Virus record (IMG/VR): IMGVR_UViG_3300029355_000102 | Direction: 5' to 3' (one strand) | Length of the DNA stretch: 64,000 bases | Source: a virus | Shown here: positions 2,848-40,314 of the stretch, piece after piece | How positions within the stretch are numbered: position 1 is the stretch's first letter | How the letters are laid out: each line of letters begins with the position of its first letter | Notes under the pieces: model-generated | What the model saw: only the letters and a program-made list of their open reading frames with translations | Told to the model about the DNA's origin: nothing | Databases searched by the model: none | Program-made: the position numbers and the translations under genes

Positions 2848-3306
2848 ATGACAAAAGAAAACAATATAACACTTCCTAAATCGGAGGATGAAAAATTATT
2901 GAATGATGTGATGGAAGACAGTGTGGATTATGTGGAAGTCCGAGGAAAGAAATATGGCATTTCGTGGCTGAAAAGAGGGACTATACGCAAATTCACCAGT
3001 ACGATGCAGAAATCAGGGAATGATGATAAGATCAGCTGCCAATGTGCAGCCGCTATCATTTTGAATGGATATTGGAAAATCAAGTTCCTCTATCCCTTTT
3101 TGTGGCGTTGGTTCTTTTATATCAAACAATATGGAGATCATGAGCTGATGAAGGTTATAGCTGTCGGCAAAAAAAAAATTCCAGTGGAAGACTACTTGAC
3201 AGCTACCATATATCTGACCGCGATGAAGGACACGATGATGACAATGACAAAAGAGGAAGCAGAGCATATCCTTCACGAACCAGCTACGGACAAACGTGGG
3301 AAATAG
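2848..3306 (+). CDS. tail assembly chaperone (G-like)
   Basis: 152-aa ORF immediately upstream of tape measure. Confidence 0.45.
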   Translation: MTKENNITLPKSEDEKLLNDVMEDSVDYVEVRGKKYGISWLKRGTIRKFTSTMQKSGNDDKISCQCAAAIILNGYWKIKFLYPFLWRWFFYIKQYGDHELMKVIAVGKKKIPVEDYLTATIYLTAMKDTMMTMTKEEAEHILHEPATDKRGK

Positions 3307-3323
3307 GCAAGTCCTATCCGTGG

Positions 3324-3590
3324 TTGACAGAGCCTTTGAGACTATTTGGGATTCCAATAAGTAAACCTTTGTTTGGTATTTATTGGGTACTTACAAATGC
3401 ACAAATTGAATTGTTGGCAATGGATGTGTCTATTGTGGTTACAGATTGTGACAAAGACAGCAAGGGAAAGAAACACGATACAAAAAACTTCAAATCCCCT
3501 TCCGTAAGTGATATAGAGGATGCTGCCAAACGCTGGAAAGACAAGTATGGCAATGGAGAAACAGCAATTAATATCAATGATTATAAGTAA
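3324..3590 (+). CDS. tail assembly chaperone extension (T-like), probably expressed as GT fusion by -1 frameshift near 3296-3306
   Basis: 88-aa ORF in -1 frame relative to upstream gene, frame open upstream to the G stop; GGGAAAT at the junction. Confidence 0.35.
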   Translation: MTEPLRLFGIPISKPLFGIYWVLTNAQIELLAMDVSIVVTDCDKDSKGKKHDTKNFKSPSVSDIEDAAKRWKDKYGNGETAININDYK

Positions 3591-3607: not shown

Positions 3608-6600
3608 ATGGCTGATCTTGGAAACCTTTACTTCGATATTTTATTCCGTGATAAGACAGCGGAACAACGTAAAAAATTGAAAGCGGAAATCACCAAAGAC
3701 TTGCAGGCAAAACTTGATGTGGGTTTTGACAAGAAGAAGTTGGTTGGTGATATGAAGACTTTGCTTCAAAGTGAGAAGTTTAAGATCAATGTGGTAGTGG
3801 ATAAGGCCAGTACCACACAAGCTGTTCGTGCCGCCTTGCAAGCCGCCGGGTTGAATACAAACTTTACAGCAAGTGATTTACGCGCCGCCAAAGCCGCAGC
3901 CATTCAAACCAAAGCGGAAGCTTCTGCCGCAGCCGCACGTGAGCTTGCGCGACAAAGAGCCGCCCGTGCCGCCAAAGCGGAACTGGATTTGGCTAATGCC
4001 CGTGAGAGATCAGCCAATGCAGCAAGACGGCACATGACAGCCACTCTCAATATGAATGGAGCAATGAACAGTCAATTGAGTATTGTCGGACAATTAAGAA
4101 ATGAATTTTTGGGGCTATACTCCATTTATGCAGCACAGAACTTTTTGCGTGCAATGGTTGATATTGGTGGTGAGTTGGAAAATCAGAAAATTGCAATGGC
4201 CTCTATTCTGCAAGATGAAGGCAAAGCTACAACCATATTCAATCAAATTAAGAAACTGGCTGTTGCTTCTCCATTCGGGATTATGGATTTGAATCAGTAT
4301 GCCAAGCAACTTTCCGCATATTCTATACCATACAATGAATTGTATGATACCATGAAAAGGCTGGCTGATATATCAGCCGGTGTAGGTGTTGATATGGGGC
4401 GTATCATATTGGCCTACGGTCAGATAAAGGCTGCTAAATTCTTGAAAGGAACGGAATTACGACAATTGACGGAAGCGAACATTCCTATGGTGGATAAACT
4501 GGCCGAGCGATTCAGCAAGTTGGAAGGCCGCATTGTCAGTGCCGGTGAAGTGCTTGATATGATCTCGAAAAAGAAGGTTACGTTTGAGGATGTAAAAGAT
4601 GTTCTTTGGGAACTTACGGATGATGGTGGCATGTTTAATAACATGCAGGAAGTTCTTTCAGAATCAGTTAAGTCCAAATGGAAGAACTTGGCTGATGCGA
4701 TTGACATTATGCTTGGTGATATTGCGGAGTCAATGGGTAGTACATTGAAATGGACTGCCGAAAGCCTTACCACCCTTGCACAAAATTGGAAAGAAGTTGT
4801 ACCGGCTATCGAAGCTGCCGTTGGAGCCTTTGGAGTATATAAGGTAGCTACATTTGGCGCAAACCGCTTGATTGGGAATGAAAGTGCGGCTCTTATAAAA
4901 AGTACGCTTGCTGCCAAGCAAAAGGCAGCAGCCAATCTTGTTGTCGCATCCAGTTATCGTACACTTACTAATGCGGAAAAAGGACTTATAGCTTCAAGTA
5001 ATACTATGACAACCGCAGATTGGAAAGCGTTGGCAAGTAGTGGAGCTTTAACTAAGGAGTATGCCTTGCGGTTAATGGCACTTGGAAAATTGAAATCAGG
5101 ACAAGCCGGTCATATTGTGCAGGTACTTGGTATATCTCGTGCTGAAATGTCGGCTGCACTTTCAACAAGTAAATGGCGTGTAGCCATGATCTCATTGGGT
5201 TATGGTATAAAACAAGTAGGAGTTGCATTAAAAGGTTTGCTTTTTAATCCATACATGCTTTTGTTTACTGGGCTTACTGCCATTGCTGAATTATGGTATA
5301 AGTCCGGGCAAAAGGCTGACGAAATGAACGAGCGTATTTCCGAGTTGACAACAAGAGCACAAGACGGTTTCAAGAACCTAACGAAAGAAGCTCAAAAATT
5401 TGCTGATGTTGATCCTTTTAAGGCGAATGATGCCTCACTGATTGCTTCCATTGAAGAAATGAAAACAGCATTAAAGGATTATTCCCCGGTTTGGGCAGAT
5501 ACTTTTAATGAAACGTTTAAGACTGATGATGAAGGAAATACAGTTAAAAGCCTTGCGGAACAATATATATTGCTTCGGAATGCTTTGGATGATACAAAAG
5601 AGGCTTATAGATTGTTGAATGCCATAAGAGGTACATCTGAATATGCGAATGATGCTACTGATGGTTATTTTGACGAAAGCTTTAGTGAAAATATTGAAGA
5701 CTACATCAAGACAGAGAAGCAGATAGACAAGATTATAGACCGTATGGCTGGTAGCTATATAGAGTATTATACTGCCATGCAGAAAGTTATAGCCAAGTAT
5801 GATGATTTTGCTAAAGTCGCTTCGGGCAAATCATTGAAAGAGCAGTTGGATATAATCAAAGAATATCCCAAGGCATTAGCCAGTTTGAATAATGAGTTAC
5901 CTTTCACGGGAGGATATAGGGATGATATTTTTCAGCTGCGGAAGGCATGGAAAAACTCTAAACGTGTTTTTGAGGAAGAAGTATCACCGGATATGCAGAG
6001 TTTCATATCTGAATATAAGTCACGATTACAAGCTGCCGGATGGAATTTAGACAATTTGAGTGACGCTCAAAAAATAGCTATCGGTTTGGATATAAGTTCT
6101 TTCTTGGATCAATTTGAAGAGATGCCGGTAGATATACGGAATTTTCTTAATGGTGAGATTCTTGAAAAACAATTCAATATTAAGATTAATGCTGAATATA
6201 CGGAAACTATTCAGAGCTTGTCAGATTTGCAGAAAAAGTTCAATGAAGCCACAGATGGGCAATTTGAAGCTCAAATAAAGGTTTCTACGGATTCAGAGAA
6301 AATTATTGAAGGAATACAAAAAGCGTATAAGGAAGCTAAAGAGATAACAAATCAATTGAAGCCGGTATTGATTAAAGCCGGAATAGATTTGTCAGGTATT
6401 GGAGCTATTGACTTGTCAAAACTTCCCGACTGGCAGAAGCAAATTGTATCAGATTATAAAAAGGCTTTCGACACAATGCAAGCCGGTGAGAAAGGAGCCA
6501 AAGAAATCGGTTTTTCTCTCACTGATCCAAGTAAGGATAAGAGCAAAAAGGATGCCTTCGCCGAAAGATTGAAAGAACGGGTAAACTTACTAAAGGAGGC

Positions 6601-9088: not shown

Positions 9089-9591
9089 TTATGAACAGAT
9101 TGAATAGTGAATTGAGAGGCCATGCCGTATCGTATGGCCTCTGCACACAATGGCAAGGTGACTGGCAAAATAATAAAAGTCAGCAGGAACTAATTGAAAT
9201 GTATATACGAGGCATTGATTTTTGTATTGAGCACGATTATCCGACAGTGGAATATATAAAAGGTAATTTTGACCGGAGTCTGCTTCATCAAAACCATATT
9301 TTTGTTGATGAACCAGTGACCGGAGGCAACAATGGTGTATATGTACTGAACGGTAAATGTTCAGGTAAACTTTCTTTCGGTAAATTTACAGCTGCTACTC
9401 TCCATTTGCGCCATGATAGTGAATTGACTCTTGAAGTGGAAGATTGCGCCAAAGTTTTTGTGAGTGTATATGATCGGGCTAAACTACATGTAAGGCAAAG
9501 CGATGTGGCTAAAGTTTATGTATATGTTCATGGTAAAGATTGCCAAGTGCAATATGAAGGTTACGTGTTGATAAGAGAAAGCCGAGAATAA
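9085..9591 (+). CDS. hypothetical tail protein
   Basis: 168-aa ORF overlapping tape-measure stop (ATGA). Confidence 0.4.
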   Translation: MIMNRLNSELRGHAVSYGLCTQWQGDWQNNKSQQELIEMYIRGIDFCIEHDYPTVEYIKGNFDRSLLHQNHIFVDEPVTGGNNGVYVLNGKCSGKLSFGKFTAATLHLRHDSELTLEVEDCAKVFVSVYDRAKLHVRQSDVAKVYVYVHGKDCQVQYEGYVLIRESRE

Positions 9592-9600
9592 CCCCCGACT

Positions 9601-10047
9601 TTATTTTCCAGTCACACGTTTTGTCAAATAGAACTTGTGAGTTTTGTCTAAGAATACAACGTAAAATGTATCGCCAACCACATGACCGATAATTACTGCC
9701 GATCCATTGATATGTATTCTTGCCCAATTTGCATCTTCCGGTACATTTTTGGGAAATTCAAAAAGGGTCTTTTCTTTTGGTGGAAATGAACCATATATTG
9801 TGAATTTATCTCCATCTATCTGTTGACGCAACGGAGAACAGCAATAACCATGTAGCGTTTCCAATGCGAAACTTAACAACCCTGCGTTTTGCCAGTCCTT
9901 AAAAGCCGAGCCATATTTTTGTGTAGTGTCAAGATATTGGAATGAAATTTTAAAGTTTGAAGTCCGGGCTTCATCATTCACACTTGGCTTCTTCTTGTAT
10001 GGTTCGGCTAATTTGGATTTCTTTTTATACCCCTGCATTTTGTTCAC
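9601..10047 (-). CDS. hypothetical protein; candidate toxin partner of the Panacea-domain protein
   Basis: 148-aa ORF overlapping the upstream DUF4065 gene by 23 nt (translational coupling); no recognisable domain. Confidence 0.35.
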   Translation of the reverse strand: MNKMQGYKKKSKLAEPYKKKPSVNDEARTSNFKISFQYLDTTQKYGSAFKDWQNAGLLSFALETLHGYCCSPLRQQIDGDKFTIYGSFPPKEKTLFEFPKNVPEDANWARIHINGSAVIIGHVVGDTFYVVFLDKTHKFYLTKRVTGK

Positions 10048-18377: not shown

Positions 18378-18611
18378 ATGAGGTATGTTGTAGCAAATAA
18401 GGAAAAGGCTTTGGATGCCGGGGTTCTGTTGTTGGGGCACTTGGTAAAGGGAGAATCCATCATCTTGAATGAAAAGGAGGTAATGTGCCTGCCTTCTCTT
18501 GATGGAGAACTGGAAGATAGAATACTGTTGTTGGACGGTATTGTTTATACTAATACAAGCATGAATCAAATTATATCAGAAGGAGGTTGGGAATATGGCA
18601 GAAAATTATAG
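18378..18611 (+). CDS. hypothetical small protein
   Basis: 77-aa ORF in operon. Confidence 0.3.
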   Translation: MRYVVANKEKALDAGVLLLGHLVKGESIILNEKEVMCLPSLDGELEDRILLLDGIVYTNTSMNQIISEGGWEYGRKL

Positions 18612-19617
18612 TGCCCAAAATAGCATCACGATTAAACGTCTTCGTTCCAATGACAGCCTGATGCTGACTTTTGAAAATAATGGCATTCCATTGTTTCAGG
18701 CCGTAGATGAAGAAAGTGGGGCTGTCTCTCCTGATTGGAGTATAGCTGCGAATCAGCCGGTACGGACACCCAAAGTAACTTCGGCACGTGGGTTGGCGGT
18801 CAGTTTGTCAGGCCATAGTTGGGCTTATAATGGAGTGGCTTTAAATTTTAACGGTGCGGAAAGTGGAGGTTGGAAAAAAGACAGTACGGGCAAATTCTCT
18901 TTGAATGCCAGTACCGGTGCCATTAAAATTGTCGGAAACTTGGCAAGCAAAACGAATATTGCAGGAGATACATTGACTTATTCATGTGTCGCTTCTACGG
19001 CAGGTGTTGAGTATAATTTGACTGGGGAACTGCCTATTGCCATTCAGAACATGGGAGCCAGTTCTTATTATCTTGCTATTCTTGCAAGTACCGAGCAGCT
19101 AACAAGTAAAGTAACAAGTTGTACTCTGACTACAAAACTGTATGCCGGTGCTAATGCTATTACCGATTACTATATAAAATGGTATAAGGACACGGCGGTT
19201 TGGACTGATAAGAACGGACAAAAGAGCATAACTGTTACCCGTGGTGATGTGGATGGTACTCAATTGTTCATAGCGGAAGTTTATCAGTCTTCAAGTGCTT
19301 CACAGCCGATAGCACGTGCTGGGGTACGCATTGTTGACACAGCAGATGAATTTCAGATTGTGTGTTATATAACTTCTTCTAACAAAGAGGTTGATACCGG
19401 ACAGCCCGTTACTGTAAGTGCCAAGATTGTAAATATGACTACTGGATCAACTTATACTCCTACTTCCGCATCGTGGACTATGGATGTGATGGATAAGGAA
19501 AACTGGAAGAGTTTGAAACATTCTACAACAAATTCTATATCTGTAACAACAACGGAAACTGACAGAAACGGGACTCAATATGATGTTGATGTTTTGGCAG
19601 AATGTCATTTTAATTAA
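18595..19617 (+). CDS. hypothetical tail fibre-associated protein
   Basis: 340-aa ORF, Ser/Thr-rich. Confidence 0.4.
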   Translation: MAENYSAQNSITIKRLRSNDSLMLTFENNGIPLFQAVDEESGAVSPDWSIAANQPVRTPKVTSARGLAVSLSGHSWAYNGVALNFNGAESGGWKKDSTGKFSLNASTGAIKIVGNLASKTNIAGDTLTYSCVASTAGVEYNLTGELPIAIQNMGASSYYLAILASTEQLTSKVTSCTLTTKLYAGANAITDYYIKWYKDTAVWTDKNGQKSITVTRGDVDGTQLFIAEVYQSSSASQPIARAGVRIVDTADEFQIVCYITSSNKEVDTGQPVTVSAKIVNMTTGSTYTPTSASWTMDVMDKENWKSLKHSTTNSISVTTTETDRNGTQYDVDVLAECHFN

Positions 19618-39118: not shown

Positions 39119-39568
39119 CTTTTCTTTAATTCTACCATATTCACATATTAGTAAGGCATCCGAAGTTGCCAATGTAACTTTTGCATACGGGAACAGCTGT
39201 TGGGCTTTCTTCTTTAAGATGTTTTTCCATTCTGTCTTACCCAATTTGTCTGTATTTCGTAATCCTATAGTTTTTTGCCAAGTTTGTGGAGATACTGTTA
39301 CTGTCGGAATCCCACAAGCTATCAATCCCATAGTCAGCTGTCCGTAACCTTCTCCAAAAACAAAAGAGGCAGAAGCACTTTGTCCGGTCATGCCATTCAC
39401 TCGTTCCAAATAACAAACGCTATTTTCTTTGTATATGGAGAGAAAATCTAATAAGTCTTTGGGAGTTGGTGGCATTTTGATACACTCCAATAATTTGTTA
39501 TTCTCGGTGTCGTACACTACAATTCCACCGTTTTTGCCAACATCTATACCTATGATCCTTCGTTTCAT
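39113..39568 (-). CDS. RuvC-like Holliday junction resolvase
   Basis: IIGIDVGKNGGIVVYD N-terminus and TLATSDALLIC acidic motif. Confidence 0.65.
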   Translation of the reverse strand: MKRRIIGIDVGKNGGIVVYDTENNKLLECIKMPPTPKDLLDFLSIYKENSVCYLERVNGMTGQSASASFVFGEGYGQLTMGLIACGIPTVTVSPQTWQKTIGLRNTDKLGKTEWKNILKKKAQQLFPYAKVTLATSDALLICEYGRIKEKE

Positions 39569-39571
39569 AAA

Positions 39572-39740
39572 TTATACTTTTTTGTTTATAAATCTTTTGA
39601 GCTTAATTACATCTTTCTTTCCAAGCCTTAGTGCTTCACTGGTCTTGATGTCAGAAGGTGAAGCTTTACAATTCTCGGTTATCCTTTCAAAATGTCGGAT
39701 AAAGGATTTTAGGAAATAGTCGGGGATTTCAACTTTCATA
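39572..39740 (-). CDS. hypothetical small protein
   Basis: 55 aa from Met at 39740; longer ORF-track start would overlap the tRNA-like RNA. Confidence 0.3.
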
Positions 39741-39754
39741 ATGATTGATTTATG

Positions 39755-39917
39755 TGGATAAGCCCGGACTCGAACCGGGAACTGTTGCAATCAGGATTTT
39801 CGTTTCTGCTTCCGTTTGTACGTATGTCAAGTGTTAATAGCATATTACCTGACTCGTGATGCTATTCGTGCATTTTTACCACAGAAACTAAGCGTCTTCC
39901 GATTTCGCCACTTATCC
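39755..39917 (-). ncRNA. tRNA-like structured RNA (about 163 nt) with canonical acceptor, D and T arms but a roughly 90-nt insertion in the anticodon region
   Basis: 5' GGATAAG pairs perfectly with 3' CTTATCC; U8; D arm with A14,G18G19,A21; T arm CCCGG-TTCGAGT-CCGGG; discriminator A; internal 7-8 bp hairpins. Confidence 0.4.
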
Positions 39918-40104
39918 GTTTGCCTCTACAATAGAGGCATTTTACATGAACAAAAAGACTCTTTGTAGTATCTACCGCCGTGGAGCGTATGCAGCGTACT
40001 CGACTCGACTTGCAAAGAGAAGAAAAAAGGTGAGGCATGATAGTTCCCGGATAGGCGGTCAAGCCACACCGGGAGAAGCTGATTATTAATCGGGTTGATA
40101 ATTA

Positions 40105-40314
40105 TTATTTTAGGAATTTAGCAAAAGTCTTGATTGAGCCTTCATTATTACTTTTTAAAGAGGCCAATTCTGTATTTTTAGAAGTTAGTGTAGAAATAAC
40201 AGATTTATTCTTTTCGATTTCTGCATCAATATCACTATTAAGTGTTTCCAAATCGGCTTTTGCTTGTGCAAATTGAGACAATATCGTATCTCTTCTTTGT
40301 TGAAATGTCAGCAT
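40105..40314 (-). CDS. hypothetical coiled-coil protein
   Basis: 69 aa. Confidence 0.3.
   Translation of the reverse strand: MLTFQQRRDTILSQFAQAKADLETLNSDIDAEIEKNKSVISTLTSKNTELASLKSNNEGSIKTFAKFLK

Follow-up and report, generated by a model that had tools for sequence, protein, structure and literature searches.

The minus strand of Bacteroides phage LoVEphage carries a 163-nt RNA gene at positions 39755-39917 of the window, the whole stretch of 64,000 nucleotides of IMG/VR virus record IMGVR_UViG_3300029355_000102 that was analysed. The RNA keeps the acceptor stem, D arm and T arm of a tRNA, and its anticodon loop is replaced by a conserved folded domain, called cargo in the following. The comparison of homologues shows a conserved and structured RNA gene that is under selection at the RNA level, and the same alignments make it very unlikely that the RNA decodes codons. 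Our favoured explanation, to which we give somewhat better than even chances, is a non-decoding small RNA on a frame derived from tRNA-Leu, which would be processed by RNase P and RNase Z and in which the cargo would be the working part.

The window is LoVEphage DNA; the 2 kb around the element are 99.8% identical to MW660583.1 and are covered by five related phage records. In the GenBank entry MW660583.1 a two-piece 'tRNA-His' with the note 'tRNA-Undet' is annotated at 29237-29439, the 5' end of which is that of the 163-nt element, and the LoVEphage paper includes the element in its count of nine tRNAs without further comment (PMC8525569). The other eight tRNAs are ordinary and clustered about 29 kb from the element, outside the window, and neither a tRNA-His nor a tRNA-Leu is found among them. 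The label of a tRNA-His with intron inflates tRNA counts and masks a conserved non-coding RNA. In the human gut LoVEphage is one of the most prevalent temperate phages, being found in about 8% of viromes, and it is inducible from cultured B. thetaiotaomicron and Phocaeicola strains (PMC12629997), so that the RNA is open to direct testing in a genetic system.

A sequence-only reading of the window had described a tRNA-like RNA with canonical ends and an enlarged anticodon region. All the tRNA-like features it named are present on the minus strand, i.e., the acceptor pairing, U8, the D arm, the T arm, the discriminator A and the gap of 112 nt that separates the D stem from the T stem, and so are the 8-nt complement AATAGCAT/ATGCTATT and the 7-bp GTTTCTG/CAGAAAC. 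The GenBank annotation as tRNA-His/Undet, the Leu-type frame, a hairpin directly upstream and the wider set of similar units had escaped it.

Close relatives of LoVEphage differ in the element at few sites: the pair G2-C71 is exchanged to A-U in a compensatory manner, and changes are found at D-loop and T-loop positions, in one loop indel and in the discriminator. Pattern scans added three more lineages, giving four in total. L116, L216 and L222 are divergent LoVEphages, in which the element is 89.6% identical and the flanks are 79-83% identical. L192, L224, L230 and L232 represent an unrelated phage, where only the element matches the window (89.6%) and the flanks are without DNA similarity. 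In the lineage of L205/L196/L225-L233 the element is about 71-72% identical and is embedded among clustered tRNA genes; its contigs reach 1 Mb and show no flanking similarity to LoVEphage. Some contigs of this fourth lineage are very large (331,943 nt for L226 and 1,082,750 nt for L229) and could be prophages in bacterial chromosomes or jumbo phages of Bacteroides/Phocaeicola. Genome records place the family in Bacteroides and Phocaeicola: a scan with the core pattern using one genome per species gave five records, all from these two genera, and the same scan of metagenomes returned the same four lineages only, plus two chance matches. A covariance-model search of 0.9 Mb gave no further homologues of the cargo. 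By these comparisons the RNA is better conserved than the DNA around it. The sequence-only reading had named a lack of conservation or covariation in related genomes as the outcome that would speak against its proposal; what was found instead are nine homologues that covary, some of them in unrelated phages.

The helices were tested on an alignment of these nine distinct sequences from the four lineages. The proposed pairs are formed in 98.1% of the cells, compared to 32-43% when the 3' partners are slid by one to three columns. Thirteen pairs have changed on both sides, four in the acceptor stem, one in the long-range helix P1 at the position of the anticodon stem, three in stem S2 of the cargo, two in the hairpin at the variable position and three in the T stem, whereas the slid controls yield 0-4 such pairs. 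It is this combination of pairing and double changes that argues for selection at the RNA level. The same helices are recovered independently by RNAalifold, and the G-U pairs together with the T loop fix the RNA strand as minus. The junctions and loops are nearly invariant, including a 23-nt core of the cargo, AATGCACGAATAGCATCACGAGT, which is identical in all four lineages. Invariant junctions next to covarying stems are the typical signature of a functional fold.

Behind these numbers, the acceptor stem occurs in the versions GGAUAAG/CUUAUCC, GAAUAAG/CUUAUUC, GAAGGAA/UUCCUUC and GAAGUAG/CUACUUC, so that the double changes affect four of its seven pairs. U8 comes next, and then the 3-bp D stem GCG/CGC, which is invariant in the nine sequences. 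P1 is paired in 100% of the nine sequences, with U35-A111 changed to A-U in three, and RNAalifold adds an eighth pair, U37-G109, which is U-A in L205/L196. For S2 four versions were found, GUCAGGU/ACUUGAC, GUUGGGU/GCCCGAC, GUAAGGU/ACCUUAC and GUGGG(AA)/(U)CCCCAC. Stem S1, which together with S2 would form a pseudoknot in the cargo, is invariant in sequence in three lineages and has two inner pairs broken in L205/L196; RNAalifold proposes AUGC(45-48)/GCAU(56-59) as an alternative to it. A tertiary pairing of UGCA in the variable loop with UGCA in junction J1 shows no informative variation, and for a possible small hairpin at 96-105 a single C-G to U-A change was found.

Positions of the RNA, its parts and the upstream hairpin in the window
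Feature	Position	Strand	Remarks
Whole tRNA-framed RNA, 163 nt	39755..39917	-	G1 = 39917, discriminator A = 39755; RF00005 29.5 bits; family model R1 201.6 bits, one copy only in the window
Acceptor stem, 5' strand GGAUAAG	39911..39917	-	7/7 pairs with 39756-39762
Acceptor stem, 3' strand CUUAUCC	39756..39762	-	discriminator at 39755; then CAU, so no encoded CCA
D arm, tRNA-Leu type, GCG-AAAUCGGAAGA-CGC	39892..39908	-	A14, A15, G18G19; aligned to RF00005 D arm
Long-range helix P1, GUUUCUG (39888-39882)/CAGAAAC (39808-39802)	39802..39888	-	anticodon-stem position; encloses the cargo
Cargo domain, 73 nt	39809..39881	-	junction J1 (UGGUAAAAAUGCACG), stems S1/S2 and loops, junction J2 (AUACGUACAAACGGAAG)
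Stem S1, AAUAGCAU (39866-39859)/AUGCUAUU (39843-39836)	39836..39866	-	8-nt complement; would be pseudoknotted with S2
Stem S2, GUCAGGU (39853-39847)/ACUUGAC (39832-39826)	39826..39853	-	three pairs changed on both sides; 96.8% of cells paired
Variable-position hairpin CUG-AUUGCAA-CAG, loop UUGCAA	39782..39794	-	2/3 pairs changed on both sides
T arm CCCGG-UUCGAGU-CCGGG	39763..39779	-	aligned to RF00005 T arm; 3/5 pairs changed on both sides (AGAGG/CCUUU in L205)
GC-rich hairpin UGCCUCUA-UUG-UAGAGGCA	39921..39939	-	3' end 3 nt upstream of the RNA 5' end; same presence/absence cassette

The Rfam tRNA model RF00005 aligns exactly to the ends of the element, just above threshold (29.5 bits against a gathering score of 29, E=0.043 for the window). 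The alignment uses model positions 1-26 and 44-71 and leaves 106 nt at the place where the model has a 17-nt anticodon arm, and the acceptor, D and T parts are aligned with high posterior probability. Thus, the canonical frame of a tRNA is found (7-bp acceptor, D arm with G18G19, T loop of the TPsiC type) and the canonical anticodon arm, with a 5-bp stem, a 7-nt loop, U33 and a purine at 37, is not. With default settings ARAGORN reports no tRNA or transfer-messenger RNA (tmRNA) at the element. Settings that permit introns make it force a tRNA-His(GTG) with an intron of 72 nt, in which the linker between D and anticodon arm has 2 nt, an A-G mismatch is present and the variable region is an unstructured stretch of 21 nt. 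Apart from tRNA, Rfam gave nothing, in particular no group I intron, ribozyme, riboswitch, tmRNA or Y RNA, in a scan of the window at gathering thresholds and in a scan of 39400-40300 at E<=10, and no Rfam family was found for the cargo at E<=10. These scans agree with the earlier statement that the RNA is neither a standard tRNA nor a group I intron tRNA nor tmRNA.

The type of the frame can be read from the D arm. A 3-bp stem with the loop GGCGNAANNGGNAGACGC and the pair A15-U48, both bases of which are invariant, are those of tRNA-Leu, and in five tandem false positives of the same D-arm pattern the standard-length tRNA with this D arm was tRNA-Leu every time according to ARAGORN. The frame is therefore of the bacterial tRNA-Leu type. 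A tRNA-Leu anticodon (NAG/YAA), a consistent A73 and a stable long variable arm are lacking: no more than 3 bp are present in the variable hairpin, and A73 is found in just three of the nine sequences (the window, L116 and L192), other LoVEphage genomes having U or C at this position and the L205 lineage G. A parent gene without the insert, searched with the pattern GGAAGACGCTTAGTTT-N(3-30)-AAACGAAAATCCTGATTGC, had no match in IMG/VR. CCA is not encoded in the element, and the ordinary tRNAs of LoVEphage are likewise without encoded CCA.

That the RNA is a genuine intron-containing tRNA, of His type as annotated or of Leu type by descent, from which an insert of 72-89 nt is removed and whose exons are perhaps sealed by the RNA ligase RtcB, is in our view quite improbable. 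It is counted as the ninth tRNA in GenBank and in the LoVEphage paper (PMC8525569), ARAGORN can be made to yield tRNA-His(GTG), His and Leu are absent from the eight ordinary tRNAs, and RtcB is encoded in the genome. In addition, other phage tRNAs carry short inserts at 34/35 or 37/38 within a good anticodon arm (e.g., in contig L143, 39-53 bits), and the 'enigmatic introns' of Lak phages are a precedent (bioRxiv 10.1101/356790). However, the 'U33' of the intron model is U35 of P1 and behaves as the base of a helix, being U-A in six sequences and A-U in three, where the exchange to A is compensated by the partner. An exhaustive enumeration of excisions that restore an anticodon arm (5-bp stem with at least four pairs, 7-nt loop, U33 and R37 required) gave none common to the lineages and zero in L205/L196. 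The anticodons forced by ARAGORN are inconsistent between close homologues, with His in the window and Phe in L116, and with Val, Ile and Phe in a sister family of frames (L165 type). These three results make a decoding function very unlikely. In tRNA-His a G-1:C73 pair and a short variable loop are expected; here the base at -1 is C and not G and the discriminator varies among the homologues (A, U, C or G), so that the identity elements of tRNA-His are missing, and the spliced product would retain the 2-nt linker, the mismatch and the 21-nt variable region described above. For a group I intron (P3-P9 core, about 200 nt or more, U-G at the 5' splice site) the insert of 72-89 nt is far too short and no match to Intron_gpI was obtained, while the bulge-helix-bulge of archaeal and eukaryal protein-spliced introns at 37/38 is absent because P1 is a continuous helix of 7-8 bp without 3-nt bulges. 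Moreover, RtcB is retained in relatives which lack the element.

The last point also bears on the proposal of the sequence-only reading that the RNA might be a decoy substrate connected to RtcB. The rtcB gene (30048-31319, Pfam RtcB) lies about 8.6 kb from the element and persists at 94% identity in two LoVEphage-like contigs without the element (IMGVR_UViG_3300029073_000002 and IMGVR_UViG_3300029580_000263), which leaves the link unsupported; in the partial loci of the other element-carrying lineages RtcB was not seen. What holds of that interpretation is that the RNA is tRNA-like, with canonical ends, and that a domain foreign to tRNAs occupies the anticodon region. Its suggestion of an RNase P/Z-processed RNA agrees with the explanation favoured here, and its connection to RtcB is not supported.

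The favoured non-decoding RNA would work as follows. Since the stems and core pairs are kept, the acceptor stem, D arm and T arm with U8-A14, A15-U48 and the contact of G18G19 with the T loop would form a tRNA elbow and an acceptor-T minihelix. From the position of the anticodon stem, P1 (7-8 bp) would bear the 73-nt and probably pseudoknotted domain. The RNA would be transcribed together with the flanking early/recombination genes, and host RNase P would cut at G1, leaving the upstream transcript with an end formed by a conserved hairpin and 3-5 nt. RNase Z would cut after the discriminator, and CCA, which is not encoded, would then be added. The product would be stable and about 166 nt long, with the tRNA frame serving as a handle for processing and stability and the cargo as the effector, binding a host or phage factor, and the cassette of hairpin and RNA would be gained, lost and exchanged among otherwise unrelated Bacteroides/Phocaeicola phages. 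More tentatively, and with clearly less than even confidence, we propose that tRNA frames are a natural modular scaffold of phages for many unrelated RNAs, of which the LoVEphage cargo would be one trans-acting family, e.g., one binding or decoying a Bacteroides factor of defence or RNA metabolism, and that the 'introns' of Lak and other gut phages are cargos as well.

Several points weigh against this explanation. With only four lineages the effective number of sequences is about 1, and the shuffle statistics, in which 0 of 500 shuffles reached the covariation score, overstate the significance for this reason; it is safer to rely on the slide control and on how many distinct pair types occur. 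Evidence from the single sequence is borderline, with an unremarkable fold z-score of -1.48 beside the Rfam E value given above. Because S1 shows no covariation, the alignment neither proves nor refutes it, and the pseudoknot may or may not form. Processing, CCA addition and stability are deduced from the tRNA shape. The upstream hairpin can be read in three lineages as a terminator for the opposite strand, which the proposed scheme does not fully explain. Finally, tblastn of the window ORFs (open reading frames) against the loci of the other lineages revealed no conserved protein neighbour: three weak shared genes were found in L191/L192, a single weak match each in L154 and in L204 (which has the L165-type frame), and none in L205/L196.

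Besides the spliced tRNA, three other explanations rank lower than the non-decoding RNA. The strongest of them, though still unlikely, is that the element is processing punctuation or an insulator only, where the tRNA shape attracts RNase P and RNase Z, which cleave the polycistronic early transcript, the hairpin guards the 3' end of the upstream mRNA and the excised piece is functionless in trans. The spacing between hairpin and 5' end, which is short and fixed in the four lineages and in many other units, fits this idea, as does the dispensability of the cassette. However, the acceptor-T minihelix and the elbow would suffice for such a role, which leaves unexplained why unrelated phages keep a cargo of 73 nt with an invariant core of 23 nt and stems that covary, and the unit of the L205 lineage lies among tRNA genes and not between mRNAs. 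We see about as little chance as for the spliced tRNA for a mimic of tRNA-Leu that can be aminoacylated, being tmRNA-like or engaging leucyl-tRNA synthetase (LeuRS) or EF-Tu, and that acts on translation, on amino-acid sensing or as an aminoacyl donor. The Leu-type frame with A15-U48 and the A73 of the window, L116 and L192 would suit it, and E. coli LeuRS does not use the anticodon. Against this stand the other discriminators of LoVEphage genomes and of the L205 lineage, A73 being the main determinant for E. coli LeuRS, the absence of a tmRNA call by ARAGORN or Rfam, and a cargo without conserved reading frame (L205 lacks the AUG of a 35-amino-acid ORF, and the frame is shifted by an indel of 1 nt; a tmRNA-like tag ORF was rejected on these grounds). 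The apparent preference for Leu frames is, moreover, biased by the scan, and oversized units of Gln, Glu, Asn and Thr type exist. Least probable, and hardly to be expected, is a decaying tRNA-Leu gene broken by an insertion that hitch-hikes as a pseudogene. The cassette is dispensable in close relatives, the discriminator drifts, and the copy in L191 is truncated and without T arm. Yet compensatory changes maintain the helices, those of the insert included, across all four lineages, and the element exceeds its flanks in conservation and is common to phages that have no other DNA similarity. The truncated copy in L191 (IMGVR_UViG_2565956596_000017, about 9469-9597) resembles the L192 type up to the variable hairpin and then runs into unrelated DNA, lacking the T arm and the 3' acceptor strand; copies of the element can thus decay or break by recombination.

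The RNA and the GC-rich hairpin upstream of it form an accessory cassette which is shared among unrelated Bacteroides/Phocaeicola phages. Both are cleanly absent from six contigs (L033-L038), in which the resolvase is 93-94% identical. In L018 (IMGVR_UViG_3300045988_150576), a near-identical LoVEphage contig, the slot is held by an HNH_3 endonuclease ORF of 166-183 amino acids (1761-2312), which takes the place of the upstream small ORF's 3' end as well. This suggests that the slot is an intergenic hot spot for mobile cassettes. What lies downstream differs by lineage: in LoVEphage a small ORF and then the resolvase, in L192 an unannotated ORF of 299 amino acids and then a gene for a YqaJ-type recombinase, and in L205 tRNA genes. 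This argues against regulation of one particular gene in cis.

In each of the four lineages a hairpin precedes the 5' end by 3-5 nt, its sequence being unrelated between them. Many other long units have a comparable hairpin at a distance of 2-6 nt; for the L165 type the distance is about 10 nt, beyond a U-tract. On the plus strand the LoVEphage hairpin has a terminator-like score, with TGCCTCTACAATAGAGGCA followed by TTTTACATGA, and the neighbouring genes are all on the minus strand. The equivalent hairpins of L116, L192 and L205 have a T-rich tract after the hairpin on the opposite strand, whereas in the L165 type the T-tract is on the sense strand.

The element is not the only oversized unit with a tRNA frame. 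A relaxed scan of IMG/VR for a Leu-type D arm, 95-125 nt and a T loop gave at least 120 matches. Among the matches listed, about 39 distinct units of 143-172 nt have a perfect or near-perfect 7-bp acceptor stem spanning the interval, where about 0.1 would be expected by chance, and these units carry at least eight unrelated inserts. As the scan was built on the Leu-type D arm, the apparent preference for Leu frames among them is biased; oversized units with frames of Gln, Glu, Asn and Thr type are also detected by the Rfam tRNA model. The sister family of the L165 type has its frame in common with LoVEphage, down to the base of P1 and the variable hairpin with UUGCA, but bears another cargo, which itself covaries. 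More units of 92-147 nt were found with the family model in the same loci. If the plan of a frame with a cargo is general, the 'tRNA introns' of gut phages would have to be reinterpreted as a family of tRNA-scaffolded RNAs and would be natural counterparts of a design that biotechnologists invented independently; this oversized phage tRNA gene, at least, can very probably not be a decoder.

The closest precedent by analogy are the Lak megaphages of Prevotella, in which 'enigmatic' and highly conserved introns in tRNA genes were described (Devoto et al., bioRxiv 10.1101/356790). In a full-text literature search this was the only relevant description, and no paper explaining such units was found. 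By that description, the LoVEphage element falls into the same class: in both cases gut Bacteroidales phages have oversized tRNA genes with anticodon-region inserts, which some relatives have and others lack, and the inserts are near-identical between distant samples, outside Rfam classes and without known splicing route (bioRxiv 10.1101/356790). The Lak introns, however, sit in assignable tRNAs (Phe, Gly, Thr, Tyr) of genomes of about 540 kb, whereas the element of the 71-kb temperate LoVEphage has no restorable anticodon arm and a helix that covaries through the supposed loop.

The topology also resembles the engineered 'tRNA scaffold' attributed to Ponchon and Dardel, which reportedly serves for recombinant RNA expression and gives nuclease-resistant RNA processed by RNase P/Z in bacteria. 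Both keep the acceptor/D/T frame intact and extend the anticodon stem into a helix that bears a foreign structured RNA. The scaffold is man-made on tRNA-Lys or tRNA-Met, whereas the phage RNA is natural, under selection and based on tRNA-Leu, with processing and stability predicted. The RNA YrlA, reportedly described by Chen and colleagues in 2014, is said to combine a tRNA-like with a non-tRNA module in bacteria and phages and to lie in an operon with rtcB in Salmonella. It is likewise a non-coding RNA in which an acceptor/D/T module is joined to another module. However, YrlA ends in the Ro60-binding stem at the anticodon position and its acceptor is closed by a loop, that is a circular permutation of the LoVEphage topology, which ends in the acceptor stem and, as mentioned, has no Y RNA match in Rfam. 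No Ro60/TROVE or rsr gene is named in the GenBank annotation (record 1-50000); the window proteins were not scanned for the domain.

tmRNA (SsrA) has no D stem, Ala identity through G3-U70, several pseudoknots, a length of about 260-400 nt and a conserved tag reading frame, and needs SmpB. It shares with the LoVEphage RNA an acceptor/T domain on a long helix leading to a body that is pseudoknotted, in the phage RNA probably so, and the lack of anticodon decoding; the missing D stem, G3-U70, the tag frame and SmpB have no counterpart in the phage RNA, for which relaxed ARAGORN settings give one meaningless permuted tmRNA call. A P3-P9 catalytic core and a length from about 200 nt upwards characterise group I introns. 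In the tRNA-Leu(UAA) genes of cyanobacteria and plastids such an intron interrupts a tRNA-Leu frame in the anticodon region as well, but there splicing restores UAA, whereas no anticodon can be recovered from the LoVEphage RNA.

An ORF at 39862-40062 on the minus strand runs across the element. It starts at a TTG, with a 3' end that falls within the 5' part of the tRNA-like structure, and the GenBank coding sequence at this spot is in a different frame (39926-40069), so that the doubt raised earlier about this reading frame is reasonable. No antisense target of the RNA was found within the phage. The sole 13-nt match is an identity in the same sense, not a complement: the most conserved cargo segment, AAUAGCAUCACGA, recurs at 18619-18631, near the 5' end of the coding sequence of the ORF at 18595-19617 on the plus strand. 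As about 0.3 such matches are expected by chance, this is probably a coincidence.

Some loci of other units show further arrangements. Contigs L075-L189 (e.g., L170, L084, L088, L114 and L141) contain many units with a tRNA-Leu frame of 92-172 nt, four of them in L170, which are often preceded by a GC-rich hairpin, and several of these hairpins share a GUCUGUGAAGAUAG-like apex. In L205 (4538-4669) and L196 (1346-1477) a tRNA-framed unit of 132 nt (39-42 bits) lies just upstream of the LoVE-type element. It has a 12-bp helix at the anticodon position, and its cargo is like a second T arm with a D-arm-like hairpin, i.e., a second tRNA elbow. Contig L143 (IMGVR_UViG_3300031555_003626) holds a GOLLD RNA (9181-9694, 156 bits) together with an array of 13 tRNAs, and has oversized genes for tRNA-Leu(UAA), tRNA-Glu and tRNA-Gln at 3273-3424, 4498-4631 and 5134-5329. 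In pairings checked by hand, their inserts end with a T-arm-like hairpin, then 7 nt complementary to the beginning of the insert, and then N-CCA. By this pattern they look like a nested mini-tRNA with encoded CCA in the anticodon loop.

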